A stretch of 32,000 nucleotides of DNA. Source: Myxococcota bacterium. GTDB lineage: Bacteria > Myxococcota_A > Polyangia > Polyangiales > Sandaracinaceae. Positions within the stretch are counted from its first letter, which is position 1. Every line of letters starts with the position of its first letter. A program made the translations under genes and the position numbers. The stretch covers positions 11,716-43,715 of the forward strand of contig JAYZQJ010000191.1 in assembly GCA_036149055.1 (NCBI GenBank), given 5' to 3'. The notes beneath the pieces are model-generated. The model did not search any database. It was not told the origin of the DNA and saw nothing but the letters and a program-made list of their open reading frames with translations. This document shows positions 2,155 to 19,677 of this stretch, one piece after another.

Positions 2155-3393
2155 TCACCCGGTCTGGGCTTCGTCGTCGTCGTCGCTCGTGATCAGCCGC
2201 AGCGCCTTCGTGCGCATGCCGCTGACCCGGCGGGCCGAGAAGGGGAGCTCGTCGGCGGTCGCGTAGCGCATCACCCGGCCCGGGTCGGTCTCGGCGCGGC
2301 CGAGGTACCAGCCCTGGAGGAGGTCGACGCCGAGGCCGGCGGCGGCCTGCGACTCTCCGACCGTCTCGATGCCCTCCGCGACCACCTGGGCGCCGGTGGT
2401 GGAGGCGAAGCGGCAGAGCAGATCCACCAACCGCTGCTTCCGGGGCTCGCGGTCGAGGTCGCGGGTGAGGCTCATGTCGAGCTTCACGATGTCGGGGTCG
2501 ATGTCGGCGAGCGCGGCGAGGGAGCTCGCGCCGGCCCCGAGATCGTCGACCGCGATCCGGAAGCCCGCCTCGCGCAGGCGCCCCACCGAGGCCGCCCAGC
2601 CGGGGCGGCCGATGAGCGACGAGCGCTCGGTGATCTCGAGCACCACCCGGCGCGAGAACGCGCGCAGCGGACCCATGCGGATCATCAGCGCCTCCGCGTC
2701 GGTCAGCTCGTCCGGGTGGAGGTTGAGGAAGAGCTGGGTCGGCGCCGGGACCTGCGAGAGCCAGCGGGCCGCCGCGTGGGCGACCGCCCGACCGAGCGCG
2801 TGCACCGCGCCGTGGGCCTCGGCCGCCGCCAGCACCTGCTCGGGCCCGGTGAGCACGTCGCAGTCGCAGCGCAGCAGCGCCTCGAAGGCCACCGTGCGCC
2901 GGTCGCTGGCCCGCACGATCGGCTGGAGGCCCAGGGAGATTCCGTCCCGCGCGATCAGCGCCTCGAGCGCGCGCCCCTGCTCCCGGTGGGCGGCGTCGCG
3001 GGCCCGGGCCCAGCGGAGGCCGGCCCGCTCGGCGGTGTCGATCGCCTCGCGCACCGCGGACACCAGGTCCTTCGGGTGCACGGGTTTCTGAATGATCTTG
3101 GCGACTTCGCCGCGGTTGACCGCGTCGACCATCACGTCGACGTCCAGCGCGCCCGAGACCAGCAGGCGCACCATCGAGGGCTGCACGTCCCGGAGCCGGG
3201 CGAGCACGCTCAGGCCGTCGAGCCCGGGCATCCGGTAGTCGACGAGGGCCACGCTGAGGGACTCGCTCTTGGCGATGCGGAGGGCCTCGACCCCGCTCGC
3301 GGCGCCGACGGTCTCGAAGCCGGCGCGACGGAGCACCTGCTGGATCGTCCTTCGAACGAGATCGTCGTCGTCCACCACCAGGATCGAATGCAT
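2155..3393 (-). CDS. Response regulator with REC + EAL domain (c-di-GMP phosphodiesterase type)
   Basis: REC motifs present: ILVVDDDD, the acceptor Asp in ALVDYRMPGLDG, and IQKP. EAL-domain motifs present: FEALLR, ITE, DDLGAG, KLD, EGIET, QGWYLG. I chose the start at ATG 3393 (MHSILVVDDD) because SD GAGGAG lies 4 nt upstream on the minus strand. The track ORF extends to 3441. Confidence 0.92.
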   Translation of the reverse strand: MHSILVVDDDDLVRRTIQQVLRRAGFETVGAASGVEALRIAKSESLSVALVDYRMPGLDGLSVLARLRDVQPSMVRLLVSGALDVDVMVDAVNRGEVAKIIQKPVHPKDLVSAVREAIDTAERAGLRWARARDAAHREQGRALEALIARDGISLGLQPIVRASDRRTVAFEALLRCDCDVLTGPEQVLAAAEAHGAVHALGRAVAHAAARWLSQVPAPTQLFLNLHPDELTDAEALMIRMGPLRAFSRRVVLEITERSSLIGRPGWAASVGRLREAGFRIAVDDLGAGASSLAALADIDPDIVKLDMSLTRDLDREPRKQRLVDLLCRFASTTGAQVVAEGIETVGESQAAAGLGVDLLQGWYLGRAETDPGRVMRYATADELPFSARRVSGMRTKALRLITSDDDDEAQTG

Positions 3394-3706
3394 GGCTCTC
3401 CTCACATCGACGGAGGGGTGAAGAACTTGACCTCCCGCCATCGGGACGTCCCCGCTCCCTCACATCGAGCCTTCGCCCCGCTGGGGCGCCACACAAGTCC
3501 ACTGGATCGGACGCGTCCGCGGCGTCGGGCTTTCCCTGGCACGTCGAGATCGTTTTCCATCGGGGTGCGTAGCCTTTTTCGCACTTTGAACTCTCACGTC
3601 GTCGCGTTGCGCGGAGCCCCCGTCTTCGGCTAGCGTCGCCGCCCAGTTCCGGGAGGGGTGAGGTGCGCGCACGCGCAGGCCCGCCCTTCTCCGAGGAGGC
3701 TTTCAC
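3394..3706. promoter_or_regulatory. Divergent intergenic/promoter region between the REC-EAL gene and the sterol operon
   Basis: This is the only long (313 bp) non-coding gap in the window. It contains the least GC-rich patch (3550-3600, cgttttccat...cctttttcgcactttgaac). A possible -35/-10 pair is TTGCGC (3607-3612)-N18-TAGCGT (3631-3636). Two direct repeats are present (see findings). SD GAGGAGG (3693-3699) sits 7 nt before GTG 3707. Confidence 0.4.
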
Positions 3707-6220
<2,514 letters not shown>

Positions 6221-6223
6221 GCC

Positions 6224-7345
6224 ATGGCCGAGACGTACGACGCCGAGGTGGCGATCATCGGCGCCGGCCCGGCCGGCACCGCCGCGGCCGCGCACCTCGC
6301 GAGCCTCGGGATCGACGACGTGGTCCTCGTCGACCGCCACGACTTCCCGCGCGACAAGACCTGCGGCAGCGGCATCTCCCCCAAGGGGATCAAGGTGCTC
6401 AAGGAGCTCGGCATCTGGGAGGAGGTCGAGCCCCACGCCTACTGGATCCGCGGCATCCGCATCGTCACGCCGGGCGGCCGCGACAGCTGGCAGTCGGCCG
6501 GCGACGTCGCCGAGGCCGTGGTCTGCCACCGCCGCACCCTCGATCACATCCTCTGGAAGAAGGCCGTCTCGGGCGGCGTGCGCTTCCTGCCCAACTTCGA
6601 CGCCGCCGAGGCGATCGAGGAGGGCGGGCGCATGGTCGGCTTCAAGGCCCGCGACGGCCGCGAGGTCCGCGCCCGCTACACCCTGATCGCCGGCGGCAGC
6701 CACTGCCGCGTCGGCCTGCCGGAGCTCCGGCCGCGCCGCACCATCCAGGCGATCATGGGCTGGTGGGACGACGCGGACTTCAAGCCGCACCACGTCGAGA
6801 TGATCTTCGACCGGATGATCGAGCCCTACTACGGCTGGCTCTTCCCGGAGTCGGAGACGCGGGTGAACATCGGCATCACCTACGAGGATCCGCCCGGCGA
6901 GAAGAAGCACGCGCGGAAGCTCTTCCAGCAGTTCCTCGACAAGTACTACGGCGAGCGCCTCGCCAACGCGACGCAGGTCGGCGGCTGGAAGGGCCACCCG
7001 GTGGTCTGGAGCTACAAGATCGACAGCCTCACCGCGCCCGGCCGCGTCGCGATCGGGGAGTCCGGGCTGATGACCCACCCGGCGACCGCCGAGGGCATCT
7101 ACCAGGGCATGCGCTCCGGCATGCTCGGCGCCGAGGCCGTTCACTCGATCCTCCGCCGCGGCGTGGCCGAGCAGGAGGCGGGCGCGATCTACGAGCGCGA
7201 GTGCAAGAAGGCGTTCCAGCTCTCCTTCTGGGGCGGCGGCGTCTTCCGCAAGATGGTGCGCACCGACGCGCTCGACTGGGCGGTCGCGATCGGCGAGCAG
7301 CCGATGGTGCAGTCGGTCACCGCGAAGCTGATGGCGGCCATGTGA
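6224..7345 (+). CDS. FAD-dependent oxidoreductase, geranylgeranyl reductase family
   Basis: The 373-aa product has VAIIGAGPAGTAAA (GxGxxG), RDKTCGSGISP (the GGR-type Cys motif RxKxCGG), YGWLFP, and IGESGLMTHPATAEGI (GDAAG-like). It starts 3 nt after the previous stop. Its stop TGA (7343-7345) shares 1 nt with the next ATG. Confidence 0.85.
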   Translation: MAETYDAEVAIIGAGPAGTAAAAHLASLGIDDVVLVDRHDFPRDKTCGSGISPKGIKVLKELGIWEEVEPHAYWIRGIRIVTPGGRDSWQSAGDVAEAVVCHRRTLDHILWKKAVSGGVRFLPNFDAAEAIEEGGRMVGFKARDGREVRARYTLIAGGSHCRVGLPELRPRRTIQAIMGWWDDADFKPHHVEMIFDRMIEPYYGWLFPESETRVNIGITYEDPPGEKKHARKLFQQFLDKYYGERLANATQVGGWKGHPVVWSYKIDSLTAPGRVAIGESGLMTHPATAEGIYQGMRSGMLGAEAVHSILRRGVAEQEAGAIYERECKKAFQLSFWGGGVFRKMVRTDALDWAVAIGEQPMVQSVTAKLMAAM

Positions 7346-10300
7346 TGACGCCGCGGTACGACGTCGGGATCGTCGGCGCGTCGGTCGCCGGGTGCACCAC
7401 CGCGCTGGCGTGCGCGAAGGCGGGGGCGCGCGTGCTCCTGCTCGAGGCCGACCCGAACGAGGCGGCCGCGCAGCACGTCGGAGCGTGGCTCCACCCGGAC
7501 GCGATGGACGCGCTCGAGGGCCTCGGCGTCGACCTCGTGCCCCCCGTGGGCTACCCGACCGGCAAGGGCTACGTGCTCTTCCCGGAGGACGGCACCGAGG
7601 CCGTGGTCCTGCCGTACTCGGTGGGCCGCTTCGGCTTCTCGCTCCCGCAGGGCCTCCTGGTCGAGACGCTGCGGCAGCACTGCGACGCCGACGAGGCGGT
7701 GACCCTCCGCTCGCCGGTCCGCGCGAGCCGCGTCGACGCGGGTACGCTCACCTGGCAGGAGCGCGGCCGCCCGCGCAGCGCCCGGGTCGAGCACGTCGTC
7801 TTCGCCGCCGGCGCGGACGTGCAGCCGATCAAGCGCGGCGCCGGCTACGTCTTCGGCGCGATCGAGCGGCCGCCGACGCACCGCATCGCCAGCCTCGATC
7901 TGGTGGGCGCGACGCTGCCCTTCGAGGGCTTCCGACACGTCTTCGTCGGCGGCTGCGGCGTCGCGATCGCGCACCGCGTCGGCCCGGCCACCGTGCGCCT
8001 GGCGCTCGACGTGCCGCTCGGCTTCCGCGTGCCCCGCGAGGGCGGCGTGCAGCTGCTCGAGGCCTACGCGCCGTCGCTGCCGGAGGAGCTCGCCCTGCCC
8101 TTCGCCGAGGCGCTGCGCCGCGGGGCGCCGTCCTGGTCGCACGGCCGCATCCAGCCGCGCGGCAACATGATCCGCGGGGGCATCGCGCGGGTCGGCGACG
8201 CCGCCGGCAGCCTGCACCCGCTCACCGCGGCCGGCCCGAGCCTCGCGATCGCCGACGGCGTCGCCTTCGCCGAGTCCCGCTCGCCGGCCTCGTTCGCGCG
8301 CAAGCGCCGCCGCGACACCCGCCTCCCCGAGGCGATCGCGATCGGGCTCGCCGAGGTGCTGACCGACGAGGCGCCGGAGAGCGTCGCCATCCGCCGCGCG
8401 ATGTACAACATGTGGCGCGACGATCCGGGCGAGCGGCTCCGCACGATGAGCTACATCGCCGGCGAGAACGAGGGGCTGCTGCGCTTCGGCGGCTCGTGTC
8501 TCCGGGTCATGCTCTCGAGCGCGGCCCGGGTGGCGAAGAGCGGCGCCCGCGGCGAGCTGCGCCACGCGCACCGGACCGGCTCGGCGCTGCTCGAGCGCAT
8601 CGGCTGGATGGTCGGCGGCGCGCTCGGCTGGAGCGATCTCCTGCCCGACGCCTTCGCGGAGAAGCTCGAGGCGCGCGGCACCACGCGCTACCTCGGCGCG
8701 CTGCACCACACCGGCGAGGCCGAGGTCGTCGGGCTGCCCGCCCGGAGCGGCGGCGCGTCGTCGATCCAGACCGCGCTCGCGCGCGGCGCCCAGGCGCTGG
8801 TGAACGAGCAGGCCGAGGACGGCTCCTTCGAGGGGGAGGTCGTCTGGTGCCCGATGCTCGCCGCGCAGTACGTGCTCGCCTCGCACGTGATGGACCGGCC
8901 GATCGATCCCGAGCGTCGGCGGCTGCTCCTGCGTCACTTCGAGGACACGTTGCTGCCCGGCGGCGCGTGGGGCCTGCACGAGAAGAGCGAGCCCTACCTC
9001 TTCGTCACCACGCTCGTGTACGTCGCGGCCCGGCTCCTCGGGGTCGACAAGGACGACGCGCTCATCCGCGAGGCGAAGGCGTTCATCCGTCAGGAGGGCG
9101 GCGCGGTCGGCATCCCGAGCTGGGGCAAGCTCTGGCTCGCGCTCGTCGATCTCTACGCCTGGGAGGGCGTCAACCCGGTGGTGCCCGAGCTCTGGGCGAC
9201 GCCGCGCTGGCTGCCGATGCACCCGAGCCGCTACTACTGCCACACCCGGCTCATCTACATGGGCATGGCCGCGCTCTACGGCGGGCGCGTGCGGCGCGAA
9301 GCGAACGCGACCATCCGCTGCGTGCGCGACGAGATCTTCCTCCAGCCGTACGGCGAGATCGACTTCGACGCCGCGCGCGAGACCCTCCGCGAGGGGGACG
9401 TGCACGACGCGCCGGGGCCGCTCCTGAAGCTGAGCTACCGGCTCCTCACCCGCTTCGAGCAGGCCAAGTCCGACGGCCTCCGGCAGAGGCTCCTCGGCGA
9501 GCTGCGCGACAAGATCCGCTACGAGCTCCGCTCGACGCACTACACCTGCATCTCGCCGGTCAGCGGCATGCTCGGCCTCCTCGCGCTCCACGCGAACGAC
9601 CCGTCGGATCCCGACCTCGTGAAGGGGCTCGAGGGCTTCGAGGGCTGGATCTGGGAGGACGAGCAGGAGGGCGCGCGCATCGCCGGCGCCCGGAGCGCGA
9701 CCTGGGACACCGCGTTCGCCGCCCAGGCGCTCGCGGCGGCCGCGGGTCACGTGGACGTCAGCGCGCCCCTCGAGCGCGCCGACGCCTTCCTCGCCAGCCA
9801 GCAGATCCGGCGCGGCACCGGCCTCGAGGGGCAGCACGACCGGCTCGACCCGACCGGCGGCTACTGCTTCGCCGGCGTCTGGCACGGCTGGCCGGTCAGC
9901 GACTGCACCGCCGAGGCGATGCTCGCGCGGCTCCACAACCCGGCCGCGAAGCCGAGCGCCCGCGCGATGGAGCAGGCGGCCGAGTTCGTGCTGCGCTGCC
10001 AGAACGCCGACGGCGGCTTCGGGAGCTACGAGGCGCGGCGGCACGCGCGGCTCTCGATCGACTGGCTCAACCCGAGCGAGATGTTCGGCGCGTGCATGAC
10101 CGAGCGCTCCTACGTCGAGTGCACCGCGTCGTGCGTGCAGGGCCTCGCCGCCTTCCGCGAGCGCTACCCGGACCGGCTCCGCGGGCGCGTCGACGCGGCG
10201 ATCGAGGCCGGCGTCGCCCGCCTCCGCGCCGAGCAGCGCGCCGACGGCTCCTTCGAGGGCATGTGGGGCGTCAACTTCATCTACGGGACGCTCTTCGGGG

Positions 10301-10740
10301 TCCGCGGGCTGCTGGCCGGCGGCGTGCCCTGCACCGACCCGCAGATCCGCCGCGCCTGCGCGTGGCTGCTCGAGCGCCAGCGCCCCGACGGCGGCTGGGG
10401 CGAGCACTTCGCGAGCGTGCTCGAGGGCCGCTACGTGGAGCACGAGGAGGCGCAGGTCGTGCAGACCGCGTGGGCGCTGACCTGCCTGCTCGAGGCCGAG
10501 GAGCCGGACTTCGCGGCGCTCGAGCGCGCGGCCCGGCTGCTCGCCCGGACCCAGCGGTCCGACGGAACGTGGCCGAAGCAGGATCCCGAGGGGATCTTCT
10601 TCCACACCGCGCTCCTCGAGTACCGCCTCTACCGCGCATACTTCCCGCCCTGGGCGCTCGGGCTCTTCGCGAGCCGCGCCGAGGCCAGGGCCGCCTGGAC
10701 CGAAGGGGGCCGCGCCGAGCGCCGCCCCGCCATCGTCTGA
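7345..10740 (+). CDS. Fusion protein: squalene monooxygenase (epoxidase)-like flavoprotein domain (aa 1-430) + oxidosqualene cyclase (aa 472-1131)
   Basis: This is the real part of track ORF 3658-10740, starting at ATG 7345 (GTG 7342 is an alternative). N-terminal domain motifs: YDVGIVGASVAGC, GAWLHPDA, RVGDAAGSLHPLTAAGPS (compare SQLE GE.LQPGG and GDA.NMRHPLTGGGMT). C-terminal domain motifs: the catalytic GWPVSDCTAEAM (Asp at 9901-9903), WDTAFAAQAL, and QW repeats (EQRADGSFEGMWGVNFIYGT, ERQRPDGGWGEHF, RTQRSDGTWPKQ). The C-terminus YRAYFPPWALG is close to eukaryotic lanosterol synthase. Confidence 0.93.
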   Translation: MTPRYDVGIVGASVAGCTTALACAKAGARVLLLEADPNEAAAQHVGAWLHPDAMDALEGLGVDLVPPVGYPTGKGYVLFPEDGTEAVVLPYSVGRFGFSLPQGLLVETLRQHCDADEAVTLRSPVRASRVDAGTLTWQERGRPRSARVEHVVFAAGADVQPIKRGAGYVFGAIERPPTHRIASLDLVGATLPFEGFRHVFVGGCGVAIAHRVGPATVRLALDVPLGFRVPREGGVQLLEAYAPSLPEELALPFAEALRRGAPSWSHGRIQPRGNMIRGGIARVGDAAGSLHPLTAAGPSLAIADGVAFAESRSPASFARKRRRDTRLPEAIAIGLAEVLTDEAPESVAIRRAMYNMWRDDPGERLRTMSYIAGENEGLLRFGGSCLRVMLSSAARVAKSGARGELRHAHRTGSALLERIGWMVGGALGWSDLLPDAFAEKLEARGTTRYLGALHHTGEAEVVGLPARSGGASSIQTALARGAQALVNEQAEDGSFEGEVVWCPMLAAQYVLASHVMDRPIDPERRRLLLRHFEDTLLPGGAWGLHEKSEPYLFVTTLVYVAARLLGVDKDDALIREAKAFIRQEGGAVGIPSWGKLWLALVDLYAWEGVNPVVPELWATPRWLPMHPSRYYCHTRLIYMGMAALYGGRVRREANATIRCVRDEIFLQPYGEIDFDAARETLREGDVHDAPGPLLKLSYRLLTRFEQAKSDGLRQRLLGELRDKIRYELRSTHYTCISPVSGMLGLLALHANDPSDPDLVKGLEGFEGWIWEDEQEGARIAGARSATWDTAFAAQALAAAAGHVDVSAPLERADAFLASQQIRRGTGLEGQHDRLDPTGGYCFAGVWHGWPVSDCTAEAMLARLHNPAAKPSARAMEQAAEFVLRCQNADGGFGSYEARRHARLSIDWLNPSEMFGACMTERSYVECTASCVQGLAAFRERYPDRLRGRVDAAIEAGVARLRAEQRADGSFEGMWGVNFIYGTLFGVRGLLAGGVPCTDPQIRRACAWLLERQRPDGGWGEHFASVLEGRYVEHEEAQVVQTAWALTCLLEAEEPDFAALERAARLLARTQRSDGTWPKQDPEGIFFHTALLEYRLYRAYFPPWALGLFASRAEARAAWTEGGRAERRPAIV

Positions 10741-10773
10741 GAATTCTGTCGTCGAGCCGTACCGATGCAGTCC

Positions 10774-10779
10774 AAGGAG
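10774..10779 (+). promoter_or_regulatory. Shine-Dalgarno (AAGGAG) for the SQMO-repeat-SQS gene
   Basis: AAGGAG lies 5 nt upstream of ATG 10785, in the 44-nt gap after the OSC stop codon (10738-10740). Confidence 0.6.
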
Positions 10780-10784
10780 CAGTC

Positions 10785-13700
10785 ATGAACCGCAGCAGCT
10801 ACGACGTCGTCGTCGTCGGAGCCGGGCCCGCCGGGTGCGGCGCCGCGCTCGCTCACGCCCGCCGGGGCGCCTCCGTGCTCGTGGTCGAGGCCGACCCTCG
10901 CGCCGCGAAGCGCTTCGCCGGCGAGTGGCTCCACCCCACCGGCGTCGCCGTGCTCGACGCGCTCCGGGTCGGCCGCCTCGAGCAGGCGAGGGCCCGCGCG
11001 GGCTACGGCTTCGTCATCTTCCCCGACGACGGCAGCGAGCCGATCGAGATGGCCTACACCGAGGGCGTCGCGCTGAGCGCCGAGCACCACGCGATCGTCG
11101 AGGCGATGCGCGACGCGCTCCGGGCCGAGGACCGGGTGGAGCTGCTCATCGGAGGCCGCGCGGTGCGGGTCGCCGACGGCGTCATCCGGATCGAGGACAA
11201 GAAGAGCGGCCGCGCGACCGACGTGCGCGCCGGACGGATCATCGGCGCCGACGGCCGCAAGTCGACGGTGCGCGAGAGCCTCGGCGTCCCGACCCAGAAG
11301 AGCGCGCCGCTGAGCTACATGGCCTCGGTCGAGCTGCGCGACGTGGAGCTGCCCTTCGAGGGCTTCGGTCACCTCGTCCTCGGCGGACCCGGCCCGGCGC
11401 TCTTCTACCGCATCGGCGACGGGCTCATCCGCGGCTGCCTCGACGTGCCGATCGCGCTCGGCCCGAACGCGCGCTCGCTCGAGGCGCTCTGGGACGGCTT
11501 CGGCCCGGTGATGCCGGAGTCGATGCGCCCCGCGCTCCGCGCCGCCCTCGAGCGCGGCCCGAGCGGCTGGGCGATCAACCAGTTCCGCCCCCGCGCGCTC
11601 TTCGGCGCCGGCGACGTGCGGCTGGTCGGCGACGCGGTCGGCCACGTGCACCCGATGACGGCCACCGGCATGACGCTCGGCCTGCTCGACGCCAAGGCCC
11701 TCGCCGAGAGCGACAGCCTGGAGTCCTACGCCAAGGCGCGCCGGAGCTACGTGCCGGAGCTGCTGTCGAACGCGCTCTACCACTGCTTCCGCCGTGACGA
11801 CCCGAGCGCGACCGCGATCCGCCGCGCGATGTTCGAGACGCTCCGCAAGGAGCCCCGCGAGCGCCGCCGCACGATGGACATCCTCGCCGGCACCGATCAG
11901 AGCCGGCGCAGCTTCGGCTCGGCCTTCCTCCGCATCGCCGCCCGCGCGGTCGGCGGCTCCCTCGAGAGCGAGCGCCCGCTGTCGCGCCTCATGAGCTTCG
12001 GCGAGTGGATGCAGTGGCCCGCCGCGCTGGTGGTGCCGAGCGGCCTCGACGCGAGCGTGCGCGCCCAGAGCAGCACGACGCACCCGATCCCGCAGCTGGC
12101 CAAGCTCACGCCGACCGCGGCCCCCGTGGCCCCGCCCGAGACGCCCGGCGGGAAGGCGCCGGCGCTCGACGTGCCGCTCACCCCGGCCCTCGAGCGCGGC
12201 ACCGCGGCGCTCCTCCGGGAGCTCGAGCGGCTCGCGATGCAGTTCGGCGAGGTGCCCGACGCGACCCTGGCCGGCCCGGCGCTCTCCTGCATCCGCGCGA
12301 TCACCGCGACCCGGATGCGCCTCGGCATGGCCGCGCGCATGACGCTCGGGCGTCGCCGCCTCGCCACCGAGGGCTTCCCCCGCCTCCTCGACGCCGAGCC
12401 GCACGCGCGGCACCTGGCGGAGCTCTGCCTGGTGCTCCTCGACGGCGCGCCGTGGGACGAGCAGCCGATCGCGAGCCTCGACGAGGGCGTGCGCGCGCTG
12501 CTCGACTGCCAGACCGAGAGCGGCGGCTTCGCGCGCTCCCGGGGCGTCGCCTCCTCGCCCGGCGCGGCCGGAGAGCTCGAGCTGACCGCGCTCGCGTGTC
12601 GGGCGCTCGAGGTGGTCGCGCGCAAGGGCAAGAGCGACGCCGACCTCGGCCGCGCGCTCGAGCGGGCCGCCGACTGGGTCGTCTCGCTGCAGGGCGACGA
12701 CGGCGACTTCGGCGGCGACGTCTCGCGCACCGCCTGGGCGATCGAGGCCCTCATCGCGGCCGGCGTGCACCCCGGCGATCCGGCGGCGCGTCGCGCGGTC
12801 CGCTGGCTCTCGGTGGCGCTCGACCCGAGCGGCGATCCGGTCGAGGCGGCGCGCGCCGTCCGGGCGCTCCTCGCCGCCGGCGTCTCCTCCAACGAGGCGA
12901 TCGTCTCCGCGGCCCGCGGCCTCGCGTCGCTCGAGGAGACCGACTGGCGCGTGGCGCGCGAGGTGGTCGAGGCGCTCGCCGCCTGTGAGGTCCGCCGGGC
13001 CGAGCGGCCGCAGAAGCGCGCCCGTCGCCGCAAGCGCGGCAGCGACAAGTCGCCGATCGGGCCCGAGCTGAAGGCGGACTGGAAGTTCTGCCGCCAGGCG
13101 CTCGGCGAGGTCTCGCGCACCTTCGCGCGGCCGATCGAGATGCTCCCGCCGAAGCTCGAGGTCGCCGTCTCGCTCGGCTACCTCCTCTGCCGCATCGCCG
13201 ACACCGTCGAGGACCACGTCGCGGTGCCCTTCGAGGTGAAGGACGATCTGTTCGCGAAGCTCTGCGCGGTGCTCGAGCACGGCGCGGATCCGGCGCCCTT
13301 CGCCGAGGCGTTCACCCACATCGAGGGCGACGACGCGGAGCTGTCCCTGGCCCGCGAGCTGCCGCGCGTGATGCGGGTCTACGACGCGCAGGACGAGGCG
13401 ACGAAGAAGGCGTGCACGCGCTGGGTCACCGAGATGGCCCGCGGCATGAGCCTCTACACGCACCGCAAGCCCGAGGCCGACGGCGTCGCGGCGCTGCACA
13501 CGATCCCGGACCTCGAGCGCTACTGCTACTACGTGGCGGGCACGGTCGGGCACCTCCTGACCGACCTCTTCGTCGACGCGATCGGCGAGGACCCCGAGGG
13601 CGCGCTCGCGATCGCGATGCGGGACCACGCGGAGGGCTTCGCGACCGGCCTGCAGCTCACGAACATCCTGAAGGACGTGACCGACGACCTCGCGCGCGGG

Positions 13701-14105
13701 GTCTCGTTCATCCCGCGCACCGAGTGCGCGCGGCAGGGCTTCTCGGTCGCCGATCTCGCCGACCCGAAGGTGCGCGACCGGGCCCACGCCGCCGTCTCGC
13801 CGGTCTTCGACATCGCCAAGGAGCGGCTCGACGCGGCGCTCGAGTACTCGCTGCTCATCCCGTCCGAGCACCGCCAGATCCGGCTCTTCTGCCTGCTGCC
13901 GCTCTGGATGGCCGGCCGCACCCTGGCGCTCGGCCGCGGCAACGACGCGATGTTCGAGCCCGACCTGCCGGTCAAGATCACCCGGAGCGAGGTCGAGTCG
14001 CTGATCGCCGAGTGCATGACGCTCGCCGAGGACGACGACGCGCTGCGCGCTCGCTACGCGCGCCTGTTCGAGCCGGCCCAGGGCCAGCGGCGGGAGATGC
14101 GATGA
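10785..14105 (+). CDS. Three-domain fusion: squalene monooxygenase (aa 1-420) + terpene-cyclase/prenyltransferase-type alpha-helical repeat domain (aa 465-735) + squalene synthase (farnesyl-diphosphate farnesyltransferase, aa 760-1106)
   Basis: This is the real part of track ORF 7392-14105, starting at ATG 10785 with an SD. SQMO motifs: VVVVGAGPAGC, GEWLHPTG, GADGRKSTVRE, LVGDAVGHVHPMTATGMT. Middle-domain repeats: LLDCQTESGGF and WVVSLQGDDGDFGG. SQS motifs: VSRTFARPI, YLLCRIADTVED (first Asp-rich), YCYYVAGTVGHLL, GLQLTNILKDVTDDLARGVSFIP (second Asp-rich). Confidence 0.92.
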   Translation: MNRSSYDVVVVGAGPAGCGAALAHARRGASVLVVEADPRAAKRFAGEWLHPTGVAVLDALRVGRLEQARARAGYGFVIFPDDGSEPIEMAYTEGVALSAEHHAIVEAMRDALRAEDRVELLIGGRAVRVADGVIRIEDKKSGRATDVRAGRIIGADGRKSTVRESLGVPTQKSAPLSYMASVELRDVELPFEGFGHLVLGGPGPALFYRIGDGLIRGCLDVPIALGPNARSLEALWDGFGPVMPESMRPALRAALERGPSGWAINQFRPRALFGAGDVRLVGDAVGHVHPMTATGMTLGLLDAKALAESDSLESYAKARRSYVPELLSNALYHCFRRDDPSATAIRRAMFETLRKEPRERRRTMDILAGTDQSRRSFGSAFLRIAARAVGGSLESERPLSRLMSFGEWMQWPAALVVPSGLDASVRAQSSTTHPIPQLAKLTPTAAPVAPPETPGGKAPALDVPLTPALERGTAALLRELERLAMQFGEVPDATLAGPALSCIRAITATRMRLGMAARMTLGRRRLATEGFPRLLDAEPHARHLAELCLVLLDGAPWDEQPIASLDEGVRALLDCQTESGGFARSRGVASSPGAAGELELTALACRALEVVARKGKSDADLGRALERAADWVVSLQGDDGDFGGDVSRTAWAIEALIAAGVHPGDPAARRAVRWLSVALDPSGDPVEAARAVRALLAAGVSSNEAIVSAARGLASLEETDWRVAREVVEALAACEVRRAERPQKRARRRKRGSDKSPIGPELKADWKFCRQALGEVSRTFARPIEMLPPKLEVAVSLGYLLCRIADTVEDHVAVPFEVKDDLFAKLCAVLEHGADPAPFAEAFTHIEGDDAELSLARELPRVMRVYDAQDEATKKACTRWVTEMARGMSLYTHRKPEADGVAALHTIPDLERYCYYVAGTVGHLLTDLFVDAIGEDPEGALAIAMRDHAEGFATGLQLTNILKDVTDDLARGVSFIPRTECARQGFSVADLADPKVRDRAHAAVSPVFDIAKERLDAALEYSLLIPSEHRQIRLFCLLPLWMAGRTLALGRGNDAMFEPDLPVKITRSEVESLIAECMTLAEDDDALRARYARLFEPAQGQRREMR

Positions 14106-14809
14106 TGGGCTTCGAGCTTCCGATGATGGACAACCTCTGGTTCCACGTCGCGATCGGCATCACGCTCTTCGTCGACGCGGTCCTCCTGGTGTTCCTCAGC
14201 TGGGCCTACCGCTCGCCGCGCTTCGCGAAGTACCACATTCGCAAGCCGATGGAGATGCGGGTCAGCAAGTCGAATTACCGCTGGACGGTGGGCGTCATCG
14301 GCCTGCTGTCGAGCAGCTCGACGGTGGTGCTCATCTACGGGCTCGCCCCGCTGACCATCAGCGAGACGACGACCACGCCCTGGTGGCTCATCGCGCTGCA
14401 GTTCTTCGGCGTGCTCTTCGTCTACGACTTCGCCTACTACTTCATGCATCGGACGATGCATCACCGGAAGCTCATGCCGCTGGTGCACGAGATCCATCAC
14501 CGCGTCCGCGTGCCGAGCGCGCTCGAGAGCCTCTACCTCTCGCCGGTCGAGATGCTCGCGGGCCTGCTGCTGCTGATGGCGGTGACGTGGGCGCTCGGCC
14601 CGGTGCACTGGATCGCCTTCGTGGCGGTCTTCTTCCTCTACTCGACGCTGCACATCGTCATCCACTCGGGGATGACCTTCCCGCACCCGGTCTTCCGCGT
14701 GATGAACCACCTCACGATGAAGCACCACAAGCACCACCTGAACAAGCACGGTCACAACTTCGCGTCCGTGACCCCGCTGCCGGACATCGTGTTCGGCACC
14801 TCTGTCTGA
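14102..14809 (+). CDS. Fatty acid hydroxylase superfamily membrane di-iron enzyme (sterol desaturase / C-4 methyl oxidase family, ERG3/ERG25-like)
   Basis: The 235-aa product has about 4 TM segments. His boxes are HRTMHH, HEIHHR and HHKHHLNKHGH. Its ATG overlaps the previous stop (ATGA at 14102-14105). Confidence 0.88.
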   Translation: MMGFELPMMDNLWFHVAIGITLFVDAVLLVFLSWAYRSPRFAKYHIRKPMEMRVSKSNYRWTVGVIGLLSSSSTVVLIYGLAPLTISETTTTPWWLIALQFFGVLFVYDFAYYFMHRTMHHRKLMPLVHEIHHRVRVPSALESLYLSPVEMLAGLLLLMAVTWALGPVHWIAFVAVFFLYSTLHIVIHSGMTFPHPVFRVMNHLTMKHHKHHLNKHGHNFASVTPLPDIVFGTSV

Positions 14810-14816
14810 GGCAGTC

Positions 14817-16487
14817 ATGTTCCTTCGCAGACCCGAAGTCCCGGAAGGGCTCAAGCCCGCGCCGGAGCTGTCCGGCGGGCTCCCGCTCGTCGGTCACACC
14901 GTCGAGTTCGTGCGCGACACGATCGGCATGCTCGAGCGCGCCCACCACGAGCTCGGCGAGGTCGCCGCGGTGCGCGTCGCCGGCCGCCGCATGGTCGCCC
15001 TCTTCGGCCCCGAGGCCCACGAGGCGGTCTTCCGCGCGAAGGACCAGGTCCTCGACCCGCGCGAGGCCTACAAGATCATGACCCCCGTCTTCGGCGAGGG
15101 CATGGTCTACGACGCCTCGCCCGAGAAGATGAACGAGCAGTTCAAGATGCTGCTCCCGGCGCTCAAGGACCGCCGCATGCGCACCTACGGGGAGACCATC
15201 CTCGACGAGGTCGAGCGCAGCGTCGCGGACTGGGGGGACGAGGGCGAGATCGACATCGTCGACTACTGCCGCGTCCTGACGAACTTCACCTCCTCGCGCT
15301 GCCTCATCGGCGAGGAGTTCCGCGAGCGCATGACCGACGAGTTCGCGCGCATCTACCACGACCTCGAGCGCGGCGTGACGCCCCTCGCCTACATCGACGC
15401 GAACCTCCCGATCCCGAGCTTCAAGAAGCGGGACGCGGCCCGGGTCCGGCTCGTGAAGCTGATCGGCGCGATCATCGACGAGCGCGCCCGGACCGGCCGG
15501 ACCGGTGAGGACTTCCTCCAGACCCTGATGGAGGCCCGCTACCAGGACGGCGCGGCGCTCACCCACGACGAGATCACCGGGATGCTGCTCGCGGCGATGT
15601 TCGCCGGGCACCACACCAGCTCGGTCACCACCGCGTGGGCCCTCATCGAGCTCTGCAAGAACCCCGCGTACATGCGGCGCGTGGTCGCGGAGCTCGACGA
15701 GACCTACGGCGAGAGCGGCCAGACCGACTACCAGTCGCTCCGCAACATCCCGGTCACCGAGCACGCGGTGAAGGAGACCCTGCGGCTCTACCCGCCGCTC
15801 TTCCTGCTCATCCGGGTGGTGCAGAAGGACTGGACCTTCAAGGGGCACCACCTGCCGAAGGGCACCTGGATCCTCGTGTCACCGACCGTCTCGCAGCGCG
15901 ACCGCGAGGTCTTCACCCACCCTTACACCTTCGACCCCGACCGCTTCGCCGAGCCGCGCAACGAGGGCAAGAAGGACTGGGCGTTCATCGCCTTCGGCGG
16001 CGGCCGCCACAAGTGCCTGGGCAACGCGTTCGCGCTCCTCCAGGTCAAGGCGATCCTCGGCACGCTCCTGCGGCGCTACGAGTTCGAGCTGGTCGACCCG
16101 AAGGTGAAGCCGGACTTCCACGGCCTCGTCATCGGCCCCTCCGAGCCCTGCCGGCTGCGCTACCGCCGCCGCGAGGAGAAGGTCGCCGCCCGCCCGGCCC
16201 CGAAGGTCGAGGAGGCGCCGAAGCCGGCGCCGAAGAAGAAGGAGGAGCGAGTCCAGCTCCGGATCGCGCTCGACCTCGATCTCTGCCAGGGCCACGCGGT
16301 CTGCGTGAACGAGGCGCCGGGCGTCTTCTACGTCTCGGACGAGACCGGCAAGGTCGCCCTCCACACCGATCGCCCCGACCCGAGCCAGAACGACGCCGTG
16401 CGCGCCGCGGCCGACTACTGCCCGCAGCGCGTCATCCAGGTCCACGAAGAAGACGAAGCGCCCCTCACCTGCCCCGTGGCGCACTGA
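14817..16487 (+). CDS. cyp51: Sterol 14alpha-demethylase (CYP51) fused to a C-terminal 3Fe-4S-type ferredoxin domain
   Basis: CYP51 signatures present: YKIMTPVFGEGMVYDA (B' helix), MFAGHHTSS (helix I), ETLRLYPP, and heme loop FGGGRHKCLGNAF (Cys codon 16014-16016). It is very similar by eye to M. tuberculosis CYP51. A Lys/Pro/Ala linker (16164-16250) precedes the ferredoxin domain (16251-16484), which carries CQGHAVC...CP (CxxHxxC...CP). Confidence 0.95.
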   Translation: MFLRRPEVPEGLKPAPELSGGLPLVGHTVEFVRDTIGMLERAHHELGEVAAVRVAGRRMVALFGPEAHEAVFRAKDQVLDPREAYKIMTPVFGEGMVYDASPEKMNEQFKMLLPALKDRRMRTYGETILDEVERSVADWGDEGEIDIVDYCRVLTNFTSSRCLIGEEFRERMTDEFARIYHDLERGVTPLAYIDANLPIPSFKKRDAARVRLVKLIGAIIDERARTGRTGEDFLQTLMEARYQDGAALTHDEITGMLLAAMFAGHHTSSVTTAWALIELCKNPAYMRRVVAELDETYGESGQTDYQSLRNIPVTEHAVKETLRLYPPLFLLIRVVQKDWTFKGHHLPKGTWILVSPTVSQRDREVFTHPYTFDPDRFAEPRNEGKKDWAFIAFGGGRHKCLGNAFALLQVKAILGTLLRRYEFELVDPKVKPDFHGLVIGPSEPCRLRYRRREEKVAARPAPKVEEAPKPAPKKKEERVQLRIALDLDLCQGHAVCVNEAPGVFYVSDETGKVALHTDRPDPSQNDAVRAAADYCPQRVIQVHEEDEAPLTCPVAH

Positions 16488-16501
16488 AGAGAGAGCAGCA
16501 C

Positions 16502-18076
16502 ATGCAGAACGTCGCCATCGAGCTCGAGAGCACCCCCGAGGTCATCGACTGCCGCGAGCCGGCCACCCACGCGCCCCTCGGCAAGGTGCCGGTGGACGGG
16601 CCGGACGTGGTCCGCGCCAAGGTCGCGCGGGCGCGCGTCGCGCAGAAGAGCTGGGGGGAGAGCACCTTCTCGGAGCGCCGCCGCCTCCTCAAGACCATCC
16701 TCGCCCACGTGCTCGACCACGCGGACGAGCTCTGCGAGGTCGTGGTCCGCGACGCCGGCAAGACCCGCGAGAACGCGGTGATGGGCGAGATCTGGCCGGT
16801 CTGCGAGAAGCTCCGCTGGACGATCGCGAACGGCGAGAAGCACCTCCGCCCCGAGCGCATGTCGAGCGGCCTGTTCCTGCACAAGAAGGCCACCGTCCTC
16901 TACCAGCCGCTCGGCGTCATCGGCGTGATCTGCCCGTGGAACTACCCGCTGCAGAACGTGCTCGGGCCGACCATCCCGGCGCTCTTCGCGGGCAACGCGG
17001 TGGTGGTGAAGGTCTCCGAGCAGGTCGCGTGGTCGTCGGCGCGCATGCAGCGCATCTTCGACGAGGCGTTCGACGCGCTCGGCTACCCGAAGGACACCGT
17101 GCAGATCGTCAACGGCTACGGCGAGACCGGCGCCGCGCTGGTCCGCTCGGGCGTCGACAAGGTGATCTTCACCGGCTCGGTCCCGAACGGCCGGAGGATC
17201 ATCGAGGGCAGCGTCGAGAACATCACGCCCGTCATCCTCGAGCTCGGCGGCAAGGACGCGTTCATCGTCTGCGAGGACGCCCACATGGAGCAGGCGGTGC
17301 ACGCCGCGCTCACCGGCGTGTTCATCGCGGCCGGCCAGAACTGCATGGCCGCCGAGCGCGTGCTCGTGCACGCGAAGGTCTACGACGACTTCGTCGGCCG
17401 CCTCGTGAGCGAGGTGAAGAAGCTCCGCGTGGGCGACGCGCCGCAGGGCGCGGTCGACGTGGGCGCGCTCGTCTCGCCGCAGCAGGTCGAGATCGTCGAG
17501 CGGCTCGTGAACGACGCGGTCGAGAGCGGCGCGCGGGTCCTCGTCGGCGGCAAGCGCGGCGATCGCCCGGGCCAGTTCTTCGAGCCCACCGTGCTCGTCG
17601 ACGTCACCCCGGACATGGCGATCATGAACGAGGAGGTCTTCGGCCCGGTGATGTGCGTGCACCGCTACGAGACCGACGACGAGGCGATCGAGATCGCCAA
17701 CGGCACCCGCTTCGGCCTCGGCTCCACCGTGATGAGCCGCTCGGGCACGCGCGCCCGCCGCCTCGCCGAGCGCCTCCGCGTCGGCTCCTGCACCATCAAC
17801 GACTTCGGCTTCACCTACATGGCGCAGGACCTGCCCTTCGGCGGCGTGGACGCCAGCGGCTTCGGTCGGCTCAACGGCCGCGAGGGCCTGCGAGGCTGCA
17901 CCAACCAGAAGGCCATCCTCGAGGATCGGCTGCCGCTGCACATGCCGGCCAAGCTCTACCCGGTGAAGCCCGAGGTCTACCCGCTCGTGCGCGGGGTGCT
18001 CCGGACGCTCTACCAGCCGACCCTGACCGGCCGCGCCAAGGCGGTGGTCGAGCTCGCCAAGAACCTCCGCCGATGA
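16502..18076 (+). CDS. Aldehyde dehydrogenase family protein
   Basis: This is the real part of track ORF 15635-18076, starting at ATG 16502. ALDH motifs present: CPWNYP, FTGS, ELGGKD (catalytic Glu), GQNCMAAER (catalytic Cys), EEVFGPV. It has a C-terminal extension of about 50 aa. Confidence 0.9.
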   Translation: MQNVAIELESTPEVIDCREPATHAPLGKVPVDGPDVVRAKVARARVAQKSWGESTFSERRRLLKTILAHVLDHADELCEVVVRDAGKTRENAVMGEIWPVCEKLRWTIANGEKHLRPERMSSGLFLHKKATVLYQPLGVIGVICPWNYPLQNVLGPTIPALFAGNAVVVKVSEQVAWSSARMQRIFDEAFDALGYPKDTVQIVNGYGETGAALVRSGVDKVIFTGSVPNGRRIIEGSVENITPVILELGGKDAFIVCEDAHMEQAVHAALTGVFIAAGQNCMAAERVLVHAKVYDDFVGRLVSEVKKLRVGDAPQGAVDVGALVSPQQVEIVERLVNDAVESGARVLVGGKRGDRPGQFFEPTVLVDVTPDMAIMNEEVFGPVMCVHRYETDDEAIEIANGTRFGLGSTVMSRSGTRARRLAERLRVGSCTINDFGFTYMAQDLPFGGVDASGFGRLNGREGLRGCTNQKAILEDRLPLHMPAKLYPVKPEVYPLVRGVLRTLYQPTLTGRAKAVVELAKNLRR

Positions 18077-19677
18077 TCGAGACGTTCGACTACGTCGTGG
18101 TCGGCGGGGGCTCCGCCGGCTGCATCGTCGCGGCCGAGCTGAGCGAGGATCCGCGCGTCCGGGTGCTGCTCCTCGAGCGCGGGGACGACGCGCAGGAGCA
18201 CCCCGAGACGCTCCGCGCCGACGGCTACAAGGACGCGTTCGCGAACGACGCGCTCGTGCTCGAGCGCTTCAGCGTGCACGCCGATCGCTGGGGTGACCGC
18301 CGGCTCTTCATGGGCTCGGGGCACGGCCTCGGCGGCAGCGGCAACATTAACGGCATGGTCTACACCCGCGGCGCAAAGGTCGACTACGACGCCTTCCCCG
18401 AGGGCTGGCGCTGGGCCGACGTGGTGCCCGACTTCGAGCGCATCGAGGCGCAGCTCCGCCCGCGCCCCCGCGCGGCGACGGCCTTCACCGAGGTCTGCCT
18501 CGACGCGGCCGAGGAGGCGGGCTTCGCGCGCTCGAAGGACCTGAACGACGGCGACCTCGGCGGGGTGCTCGGCTACGAGCACATGAACTACGAGGGTGAC
18601 GACCGGCGCAGCAGCTACGTCGCCTTCCTCCTGCCCGCGCTCGACCGCGGCAACCTCGTGGTCCGCACCAACGCGAAGGTCGAGCGCCTCACCGTCGACG
18701 AGCGGGGCGTCACCGGCGTGCGCTACGCCTGGGACGGCGGCGACCACGAGGCGCGGGCGGTCCGCGAGGTGGCGATGTGCGCCGGCGCCCTCGAGACGCC
18801 GCGCCTGCTGATGCTCTCGGGCATCGGGCCGAGCGGCGCGCTCCGGCACGTGGGCCTGCCCGCGGTGCACGAGGTGCCCGGGGTGGGCGAGAACCTCCAC
18901 GACCACCCGAACGTGAGCCTCTTCTTCCGCGGTCAGCGCGAGGTCGACTGCAACTACCCGCAGCTCTACGGCTTCCACCGCGCGAACGAGGCGACCGACC
19001 TGCCCGAGGGCGCGAGCGACACCTGCTACGTCTTCTACCCGGCCCGCAGCTCGCTCAAGGAAGCGATGATGCGCATGCTGCCGACGCTGGTGCTGCCGGA
19101 GCCGCTCTACGATCTGCCCGCGATGCCCAAGCTGGTGCGCGGCGGCGTGCGCCTCGCCTTCGGGCCGCGCGCGATGCGAGAGGCGGTCAAGCGCGTCTAC
19201 GGCATCGTCGTCATCCTCGGCAAGCCCAAGAGCCGCGGCCGGCTCCGGCTCACCGCCTCGAGCCCGAGCGCCCCGGCGGCGATCGACCCGGGCTACTTCG
19301 CCGACCCCGAGGACATGGAGACGATGATCCGCGGCGTCGAGCGCGCCCGCCGCATCGCCCGCGCGCAGCCGCTCCGGTCGTGGGGCAACACGGAGCTCTT
19401 CCCCGGCCTGCTCGGGCGCTCGCGCGACGCGATCGAGGGCTGGATCCGGCAGAACGTGATGACCACGTATCACTACGCCGGCACCTGCGCGATGGGCGAC
19501 AACGGCGCGAGCGTGTGCGATCCGCGCCTCCGGGTGCGGGGCGTGCGCGGCCTCCGGATCGCCGACGCCTCGGCCATCCCGTTCACGCCGGTCTCGGCCC
19601 TCAACGCCCCCTCCATGCTGGTCGGCCACCGCGCCGCCCGCTTCATGCGCGAAGAGTCCCCAAGCGTGGACGCCTGA
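18073..19677 (+). CDS. GMC-family FAD oxidoreductase (choline dehydrogenase / alcohol oxidase-like)
   Basis: This is the real part of track ORF 16936-19677. Its ATG overlaps the ALDH stop (ATGA at 18073-18076). Motifs present: DYVVVGGGSAGCIVAAELSED...LLLERG, GGSGNINGMVYTRG, LMLSGIGP, YHYAGTCAMG (active-site His), IADASAIP. Confidence 0.92.
   Translation: MIETFDYVVVGGGSAGCIVAAELSEDPRVRVLLLERGDDAQEHPETLRADGYKDAFANDALVLERFSVHADRWGDRRLFMGSGHGLGGSGNINGMVYTRGAKVDYDAFPEGWRWADVVPDFERIEAQLRPRPRAATAFTEVCLDAAEEAGFARSKDLNDGDLGGVLGYEHMNYEGDDRRSSYVAFLLPALDRGNLVVRTNAKVERLTVDERGVTGVRYAWDGGDHEARAVREVAMCAGALETPRLLMLSGIGPSGALRHVGLPAVHEVPGVGENLHDHPNVSLFFRGQREVDCNYPQLYGFHRANEATDLPEGASDTCYVFYPARSSLKEAMMRMLPTLVLPEPLYDLPAMPKLVRGGVRLAFGPRAMREAVKRVYGIVVILGKPKSRGRLRLTASSPSAPAAIDPGYFADPEDMETMIRGVERARRIARAQPLRSWGNTELFPGLLGRSRDAIEGWIRQNVMTTYHYAGTCAMGDNGASVCDPRLRVRGVRGLRIADASAIPFTPVSALNAPSMLVGHRAARFMREESPSVDA

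Follow-up and report, generated by a model that had tools for sequence, protein, structure and literature searches.

Bacterial sterol synthesis has been described in Sandaracinus amylolyticus, which makes cholesterol from sterol genes gathered largely in one cluster, a geranylgeranyl-reductase (GGR)-family gene of which serves as C-24 reductase (PMC12004948). In addition, 'fused SMO/OSC homologs' have been mentioned by Brown et al. 2023 (PMC10070321), and workers on bacterial sterols already remove the 'fused SMO/OSC' N-termini before aligning. Here, we analysed one such gene in a 32,000-nucleotide stretch of a Myxococcota genome (GCA_036149055.1, contig JAYZQJ010000191.1, positions 11,716 to 43,715; hereafter the window), in which a squalene epoxidase (SE)-like module is joined to a complete oxidosqualene cyclase (OSC) and is followed by a second gene that carries a paralogous SE module, a helical domain of its own (X) and a squalene synthase (SQS). 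The SE-OSC of the window is a local, syntenic orthologue of the bacterial fused SMO/OSC family, so the architecture itself is already known and of a functionally uncharacterised kind, and what appears to be new is the split of the family into a single type and a paired type, the latter with an eroded OSC-fused SE. With a probability of roughly 0.55, we propose that the SE-X-SQS protein makes and epoxidises squalene, that the OSC half cyclises the product, and that the fused SE module mainly docks the protein or hands on the lipid, for which it may touch its paralogue.

The described counterpart is the protein AKF09142.1 (WP_053236221.1; 1145 aa) of S. amylolyticus DSM 53668, which shares the SE-linker-OSC order and is 55% identical over its full length. 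In the complete genome, its cluster comprises an HMG-CoA reductase fused to a short-chain dehydrogenase/reductase (HMGR-SDR, 875 aa), SdmA, GGR, SE-OSC (1145 aa), ERG4/24, SE-SQS (1146 aa), a CYP51-ferredoxin (CYP51-Fdx) fusion and ERG2. The HMGR-SDR fusion, GGR/Bsr, the SE-SQS fusion and CYP51-ferredoxin are neighbours in common with the window, whereas SdmA, ERG24 and ERG2 are additions of the S. amylolyticus cluster. The core synteny is also found in two uncultured relatives, one of them a Sandaracinaceae metagenome-assembled genome (MAG). The initial annotation of this DNA held that epoxidase and cyclase are separate proteins in known sterol producers. This premise is wrong, since the cholesterol producer S. 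amylolyticus carries the orthologous fusion and 'fused SMO/OSC homologs' are in print (PMC10070321); nor is the fusion novel, as the same architecture, in the same operon and with an adjoining SE-SQS fusion, was already present in that genome. Full-text literature searches returned no functional study or analysis of the SE-OSC fusion, and the main evolutionary papers are silent on it.

Three other systems frame the comparison. Human SQLE (6C6N/6C6R) and LSS (1W6K) have the corresponding folds (TMt 0.80 and 0.85) and the OSC catalytic residues in common with the two modules, but they are separate polypeptides of the endoplasmic reticulum, whereas one chain with a 23-residue linker is found here, and the window SE module, only 17–18% identical to SQLE, is without the equivalents of Y335, Y474 and F477. 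The CYP51-ferredoxin fusion of Methylococcus capsulatus (PMC7947880) is a precedent for fusions in the sterol pathway and has the same architecture as window 14817–16487, although it joins an enzyme to its redox partner and not two consecutive pathway enzymes. Finally, single-type fusions (Polyangiaceae P0097 and P0047; Gammaproteobacteria and Rhodospirillaceae MAGs L007–L009) share the domain order, a length of ~1120–1180 aa and a DCTAE-type cyclase with the window protein, and differ from it in that all family-invariant SE residues are kept, that the flanks (2–10 kb per side) are without a second SE, and that SQS is fused to HMG-CoA reductase, with or without farnesyl diphosphate (FPP) synthase.

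One gene, two modules

The features on which the argument relies are as follows.

7345–10740, + strand: gene for the SE-OSC fusion (1131 codons and a stop codon), with a product identical to MEC7523976.1
7345–8679, + strand: squalene-epoxidase-fold flavoprotein module (aa 1–445) with derived motifs (Pfam SE, SQLE match, fold)
7375–7392, + strand: dinucleotide-binding motif GASVAG, with Ser for the second Gly of GxGxxG
7477–7497, + strand: VGAWLHP replacing the family AGEWLHP; the human E165 equivalent is Ala
7804–7821, + strand: AAGADV replacing the GADGR 'DG' motif
8191–8235, + strand: GD motif region VGDAAGSLHPLTAAG, retained
8680–8748, + strand: flexible inter-module linker of 23 residues (aa 446–468), from AlphaFold2 pLDDT, open sequence and dN/dS
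8749–10716, + strand: oxidosqualene cyclase module of lanosterol-synthase type (aa 469–1124), from Pfam, NCBIfam, the 1W6K alignment and Foldseek
9895–9915, + strand: VSDCTAE catalytic-acid motif (aa 851–857; human D455 equivalent)
10785–14105, + strand: SE - helical X domain - squalene synthase fusion (SE-X-SQS), 1106 aa, with the paralogous SE module

The SE-OSC gene is a single stop-free open reading frame (ORF). As had been annotated, its start codon (ATG at 7345) shares a nucleotide with the stop codon of the preceding gene (TGA, 7343–7345), giving TGATG, and at two related loci (L003 and L047) the GGR gene likewise meets SE-OSC in a TGATG. The length of this ORF alone is no evidence, because long chance ORFs abound at the ~73% G+C of the window: an antisense ORF of 1138 aa covers 7189–10605, and the SE-OSC frame itself is open over 3658–10740 (2360 aa). 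The reality of the coding sequence follows from codon-position GC, which is continuous in the claimed frame from 7350 to ~10650 (third position 0.96–1.00, first ~0.75, second ~0.5) and unbroken over 8500–8800, while the coding signal 5′ of 7345 lies in a different frame, that of the preceding gene. Moreover, the linker DNA (8680–8800) contains neither a stop nor an in-frame ATG, GTG or TTG from which a separate cyclase could start.

In a search of 5.8 billion proteins, the identical 1131-aa protein was found in a Myxococcota MAG (MEC7523976.1), and its 90% cluster holds six 1131-aa members, identical or near-identical, on at least 17 contigs (NCBI, JGI and Logan). More than 119 further clusters are full-length, with 1095–1211 aa, 95–100% query coverage and 44–88% identity. 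The architecture is not confined to Myxococcota but extends to two MAGs of Gammaproteobacteria, a Rhodospirillaceae bin from a sponge association and one MAG of the Polarisedimenticolaceae. When the 150 best SE relatives were taken from a library of 50%-identity representatives, 30 exceeded 1000 aa, the rest being mostly stand-alone proteins of ~420–480 aa. Note that an SE-profile survey of species genomes was dominated by the generic FAD-binding pattern and gave, among the matches listed, four relevant loci (L007–L010), none of them from Myxococcota.

These data also bear on whether two genes were joined artificially, be it through faulty sequencing or assembly, through a frameshift or because a stop was missed. 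Such an origin would be in line with the frequent chance ORFs at 73% G+C and with a distant relative (L010) whose SE and OSC are in frame with one stop codon between them. Nevertheless, the coding signal is continuous through SE-OSC, at least 17 contigs of different sources carry the protein, full-length homologues number more than 119 and are found in two complete genomes of S. amylolyticus, the linker is open, and the single-chain model is confident. On these grounds we rule out a sequencing error or frameshift, leaving the chance of an artefact negligible, and the initial annotation was right that the fusion is genuine. In the distant relative L010 (5938–9309 of the Dehalococcoidia MAG DAOULB010000014.1), an SE of 475 aa and an OSC of 647 aa with DCTAE are separated by one in-frame linker stop, which is a candidate split gene, sequencing error or read-through.

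In the AlphaFold2 model of the whole chain (from an 88-sequence family alignment), mean pLDDT was 90.4 and pTM 0.91, with the SE module mostly above 85 and values below 50 only at aa 446–468. A pTM of 0.91 in a two-module chain means that SE and OSC are confidently fixed relative to each other, and the SE module is accordingly predicted to pack rigidly against the cyclase; the corresponding pTM of SE-X-SQS was 0.70. A Foldseek search found no solved chain spanning both modules.

The reading of the gene as one polypeptide with an N-terminal SE-family module and a full OSC was borne out by the 1131-aa ORF, the Pfam and NCBIfam matches and VSDCTAE. Indeed, SQHop_cyclase_N (aa 479–773, 173.5 bits) and SQHop_cyclase_C (aa 784–1107, 183.1 bits) far exceed their cut-offs of ~26, TIGR01787 scores 461 bits (cut-off 322.7), and the best-scoring model, TIGR03463 (2,3-oxidosqualene cyclase; aa 484–1107), reaches 713 bits (E 2e-214) over its full length, which is below the curated cut-off of 851. 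The module matches human LSS 1W6K with 428 bits, and its predicted structure superposes on human lanosterol synthase 1W6J/1W6K with TMt 0.85, rmsd 2.2 Å and 35% identity. The equivalents of D455, C456, C533 and H232 are present in the 1W6K alignment (VSDCTAE, YVECT at aa 923–927, YCHTR at aa 631–635), and the cyclase half is thus most likely active on 2,3-oxidosqualene. As to its product, the equivalents of human T381/C449/V453 read A/H/V, a mixed lanosterol/cycloartenol signature; relatives have been described as mainly lanosterol synthases (PMC12004948). Another fusion of the family (P0248, 1073 aa) presents the reverse pattern, with canonical SE motifs and a cyclase that has PCAKTTAE in place of DCTAE and has lost parts of the barrel.

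Erosion of the cyclase-fused epoxidase module

The SE module of SE-OSC has a complete fold and a weak sequence signature. Pfam FAD-binding models match at aa 5–63, SE (PF08491) matches at aa 186–310 with a marginal 24.1 bits (cut-off 20.1), and human SQLE 6C6N is the top PDB sequence match (E 1.6e-9). In Foldseek, the module aligns with SQLE 6C6R over its whole length (TMt 0.80, ~465 columns, 17–18% identity), including all three domains, namely the FAD-binding, the substrate-binding and the C-terminal helical one, the last formed by helices at aa 378–443. The neighbouring SE-SQS fusion, correctly annotated from the start as sharing a paralogous module, provides a reference within the same locus: the two SE modules are 35% identical (E 1e-59), and the SQS-borne copy scores 68 bits with Pfam SE and 83.5 bits with human SQLE over the full length, as compared with 24 bits and 40 bits, fragmented, for the OSC-borne copy. 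The SE module of SE-X-SQS has the canonical motifs GAGPAG, AGEWLHP, GADGRKS and GDAVGHVHPMTATG.

In contrast, the window SE-OSC copy departs from the canonical dinucleotide-binding motif, the second Gly of which is kept in 118 of 118 SE-SQS modules and in all 64 single-type modules with a residue at that position. The GD motif is kept (VGDAAG), and the Asp of the DG motif is replaced by Ala. In the squalene pocket, the position of human Y195 remains aromatic (Y76), while Y335, Y474 and F477 correspond to His210, Ala336 and Leu339; in addition, the module carries R161Q, E165A, P331V and S304H (human numbering). In human SQLE, the pocket residues including Y195, Y335 and F477 are needed for activity, which mutation of Y335 or F477 abolishes (Padyana et al., PMC6327030).

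These losses were placed in the context of the family by distinguishing two types. The paired type was defined as an SE-OSC gene with a second SE gene seen on the same contig (n = 21; 17 were recognised by contigs of identical length, the others being the window, S. amylolyticus, L047 and L048), and the single type was checked on four SE-OSC genes whose retrieved flanks of 2–10 kb per side are without a second SE. At two of these four loci, SQS is fused to HMGR (881 aa, L005 4923–7568) or to HMGR and FPP synthase (1424 aa, L049 4492–8766). SE(SQS) modules are conserved to 95% or more at 98 columns of the alignment, and as a retention score we counted how many of these are kept: 55–72 in all 21 paired modules (57 in the window, and 69 in S. 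amylolyticus, which retains GAGPAG, GEWLHP and the Y335 equivalent), 80–82 in the four checked unpaired ones, and 75–83 in the single-type group as a whole. The score alone predicted P0076 to be paired and P0047 to be unpaired, and both predictions were confirmed.

Twelve residues (human equivalents G132, R161, E165, H226, S304, P331, L333, Y335, D408, G420, Y474 and F477) are near-invariant in 121 SE(SQS) and 67 single-type modules and vary within the paired clades. As an example, the Y335 equivalent is Y17/H4/Q1, Y8/H7/Q4/I1 and H6 in three paired clades, G420 is found as G13/D8/N1, and Y474 as A8/H8/S4/T2. Over 67 canonical columns, the two large paired clades had mean entropies of 0.58 and 0.33 and the remaining groups had 0.09 and 0.05, values that are low partly by construction, and the window module is substituted at 20 of the 67 columns invariant in both other SE groups. 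The paired modules also evolve faster: their root-to-tip length was 0.73, as compared with 0.53 in the single type, and where the OSC domains are equally diverged, paired SE modules lie 10–15 identity points below single-type ones. With a root-to-tip length of 0.92, the longest of 119, the window SE module is the most diverged of all.

The module is not decaying for all that. Compared with the 88%-identical orthologue of L047, dN/dS was 0.18 for SE, 0.21 for OSC and 0.47 for the linker region (aa 401–478), and the value of 0.18 means that the SE module is under purifying selection. In a neighbour-joining tree of 243 SE modules, all 121 of the SE(SQS) kind grouped together, apart from a second clade formed by the SE(OSC) kind; these separate deep clades rule out a recent local duplication as the origin of the two modules, which are old paralogues.

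Role of the fused module

The initial annotation supposed that the fusion passes 2,3-oxidosqualene directly to the cyclase. For the window copy, such a hand-over from the fused SE to its own cyclase is doubtful, because no other of the 119 modules is as diverged and because residues invariant in every other bacterial SE group are lost. The corresponding alternative is a fully bifunctional enzyme in which the fused SE is active and feeds its own cyclase, leaving the SQS-borne SE redundant or specialised (electron donor, regulation or a second epoxidation). Several observations agree with it: the SE fold is complete, with the GD motif, the strand-2 Glu and the R234 equivalent kept; dN/dS of the module is low, the two-module model is rigid and Pfam SE scores above its gathering cut-off; and the single type, which is the ancestral one, has the look of a sole, canonical epoxidase and of a true bifunctional epoxidase-cyclase. 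On the other hand, the 20 substituted residues include the Y335, F477, Y474, R161 and G132 equivalents, variation at these positions between close relatives points to relaxation and not to a specificity newly fixed, the window SE has the longest branch, and a canonical SE is encoded only 45 bp downstream of SE-OSC. We thus hold full bifunctionality of the window protein to be a real but secondary possibility.

A different chemistry is another way to account for a remodelled pocket (Y335H, Y474A, F477L, P331V, S304H) under continuing purifying selection: the SE-like module could be a flavin monooxygenase or a lipid-binding module acting on another isoprenoid or sterol intermediate, or a maker of 2,3;22,23-dioxidosqualene. 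We consider this improbable, since the pocket residues differ between the paired clades and do not converge on a new consensus, and no known step of the bacterial cholesterol route is left wanting a flavin monooxygenase (PMC12004948 and PMC10202945, together with our own inference).

Our preferred reading, in which the fused SE serves mainly docking or hand-off, would run as follows. The arrival of a canonical SE on the SQS protein would have freed the OSC-fused SE from catalytic constraint, and the module, while losing otherwise invariant residues of the cofactor site and the substrate pocket, would have been kept folded and docked on the cyclase. SE-X-SQS would produce squalene and then epoxidise it, and the OSC half of SE-OSC would convert 2,3-oxidosqualene to the first sterol. 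The OSC-fused SE would act as a non-catalytic or weakly catalytic module for docking, membrane positioning or lipid hand-off, and may pair with its paralogue in an SQS-SE-OSC complex. Which SE is active is an inference, as would be any channelling or hetero-association. As a bolder and more tentative hypothesis, to which we give somewhat less than even odds, the cyclase-fused SE of bacteria with both fusions would be a selected pseudo-enzyme adaptor that recognises its SE-X-SQS paralogue or captures its product at the membrane, thus forming a squalene-synthase/epoxidase/cyclase metabolon.

Several points weigh against the docking role. The module retains the GD motif, the Glu that binds ribose and closes strand 2, the equivalent of R234 and an aromatic residue at the Y195 position, and of the 98 columns conserved in bacteria no more than 52 are kept by human SQLE. 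The correlation between pairing and erosion rests on few events, because the paired type amounts to about two independent clades, and 'unpaired' was judged from flanks of at most 10 kb per side and not from whole genomes. Purifying selection as strong as that acting on the OSC would likewise be expected of a specialised epoxidase that is still active. In addition, the S. amylolyticus SQMO locus tag given by Wei et al. 2016 is unrelated to the OSC tag, so that a further SE copy is possible there.

Nor does any of the observed residue losses prove the module inactive. True FAD monooxygenases with GxSxxG are known, 2,6-dihydroxypyridine hydroxylase among them, and GASVAG was for this reason withdrawn as proof of lost FAD binding. 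Likewise, the loss of the DG-motif Asp was dropped as a marker of inactivity, many single-type fusions, themselves presumably active, being without this Asp.

The sterol operon and its significance

The SE-OSC and SE-X-SQS genes belong to a block (3707–19677) of genes tightly packed head to tail on the + strand, with several stop/start overlaps. Its other members are listed below.

3707–6220, + strand: 837-aa fusion of a class II-type HMG-CoA reductase with an SdmB-like SDR (sterol C-4 demethylation); opens the block
6224–7345, + strand: geranylgeranyl-reductase-family gene, with the TGATG overlap with SE-OSC, located where S. amylolyticus has its C-24 sterol reductase (Bsr)
14102–14809, + strand: FA_hydroxylase-family gene
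14817–16487, + strand: CYP51-like P450 with a C-terminal 4Fe-4S ferredoxin, fused
16502–18076, + strand: aldehyde dehydrogenase
18073–19677, + strand: GMC oxidoreductase

This operon-like block is a sterol block of the Sandaracinaceae type, probably for cholesterol, and the overlaps at 7345, 14102/14105 and 18073/18076 (TGATG, ATGA) suggest translational coupling along it. The fusion of HMGR with the SdmB-like SDR is kept in S. amylolyticus, L047 and L048. The block is without the Rieske protein SdmA, ERG24 and ERG2 of the S. amylolyticus cluster, and the FA_hydroxylase, aldehyde dehydrogenase and GMC oxidoreductase surround CYP51-Fdx instead, the same trio being found in L003 (18420–23399). 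Speculatively, this trio could provide an alternative oxidation of the C-4 methyl groups, from the hydroxylase to the alcohol oxidase, the aldehyde dehydrogenase and finally the SdmB-like decarboxylase.

The X region of SE-X-SQS (aa ~465–740) is a confidently predicted all-helical domain with weak similarity to QW/squalene-cyclase repeats (Pfam ~19 bits; BLASTP E 7e-4 to the OSC module), for which the fold search was dominated by flavoprotein matches; it may be a vestigial cyclase-like domain. In L048 (13558–16949), SE-X-SQS is split into SE-X (887 aa) and SQS (242 aa) with overlapping stop and start. On either side of the block lie a response-regulator/EAL protein (2155–3327, − strand), which L047 likewise has upstream, and a hybrid histidine kinase (19795–21387, + strand).

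Altogether, the sterol operons compared here are rich in fusions (HMGR-SdmB, HMGR-SQS, HMGR-FPPS-SQS, SE-OSC, SE-X-SQS and CYP51-Fdx), and the function of the SE-OSC fusion is a question that has apparently never been asked in the field. The split between single and paired-eroded types offers a testable handle on whether oxidosqualene is channelled and on whether a duplicated enzyme module can become a scaffold. It also calls for caution in annotation, as an SE-like domain does not always stand for an active epoxidase when sterol capacity is deduced from metagenomes. Should the metabolon hypothesis be true, nature would have reused a duplicated catalytic domain for docking within a channel of sterol synthesis.

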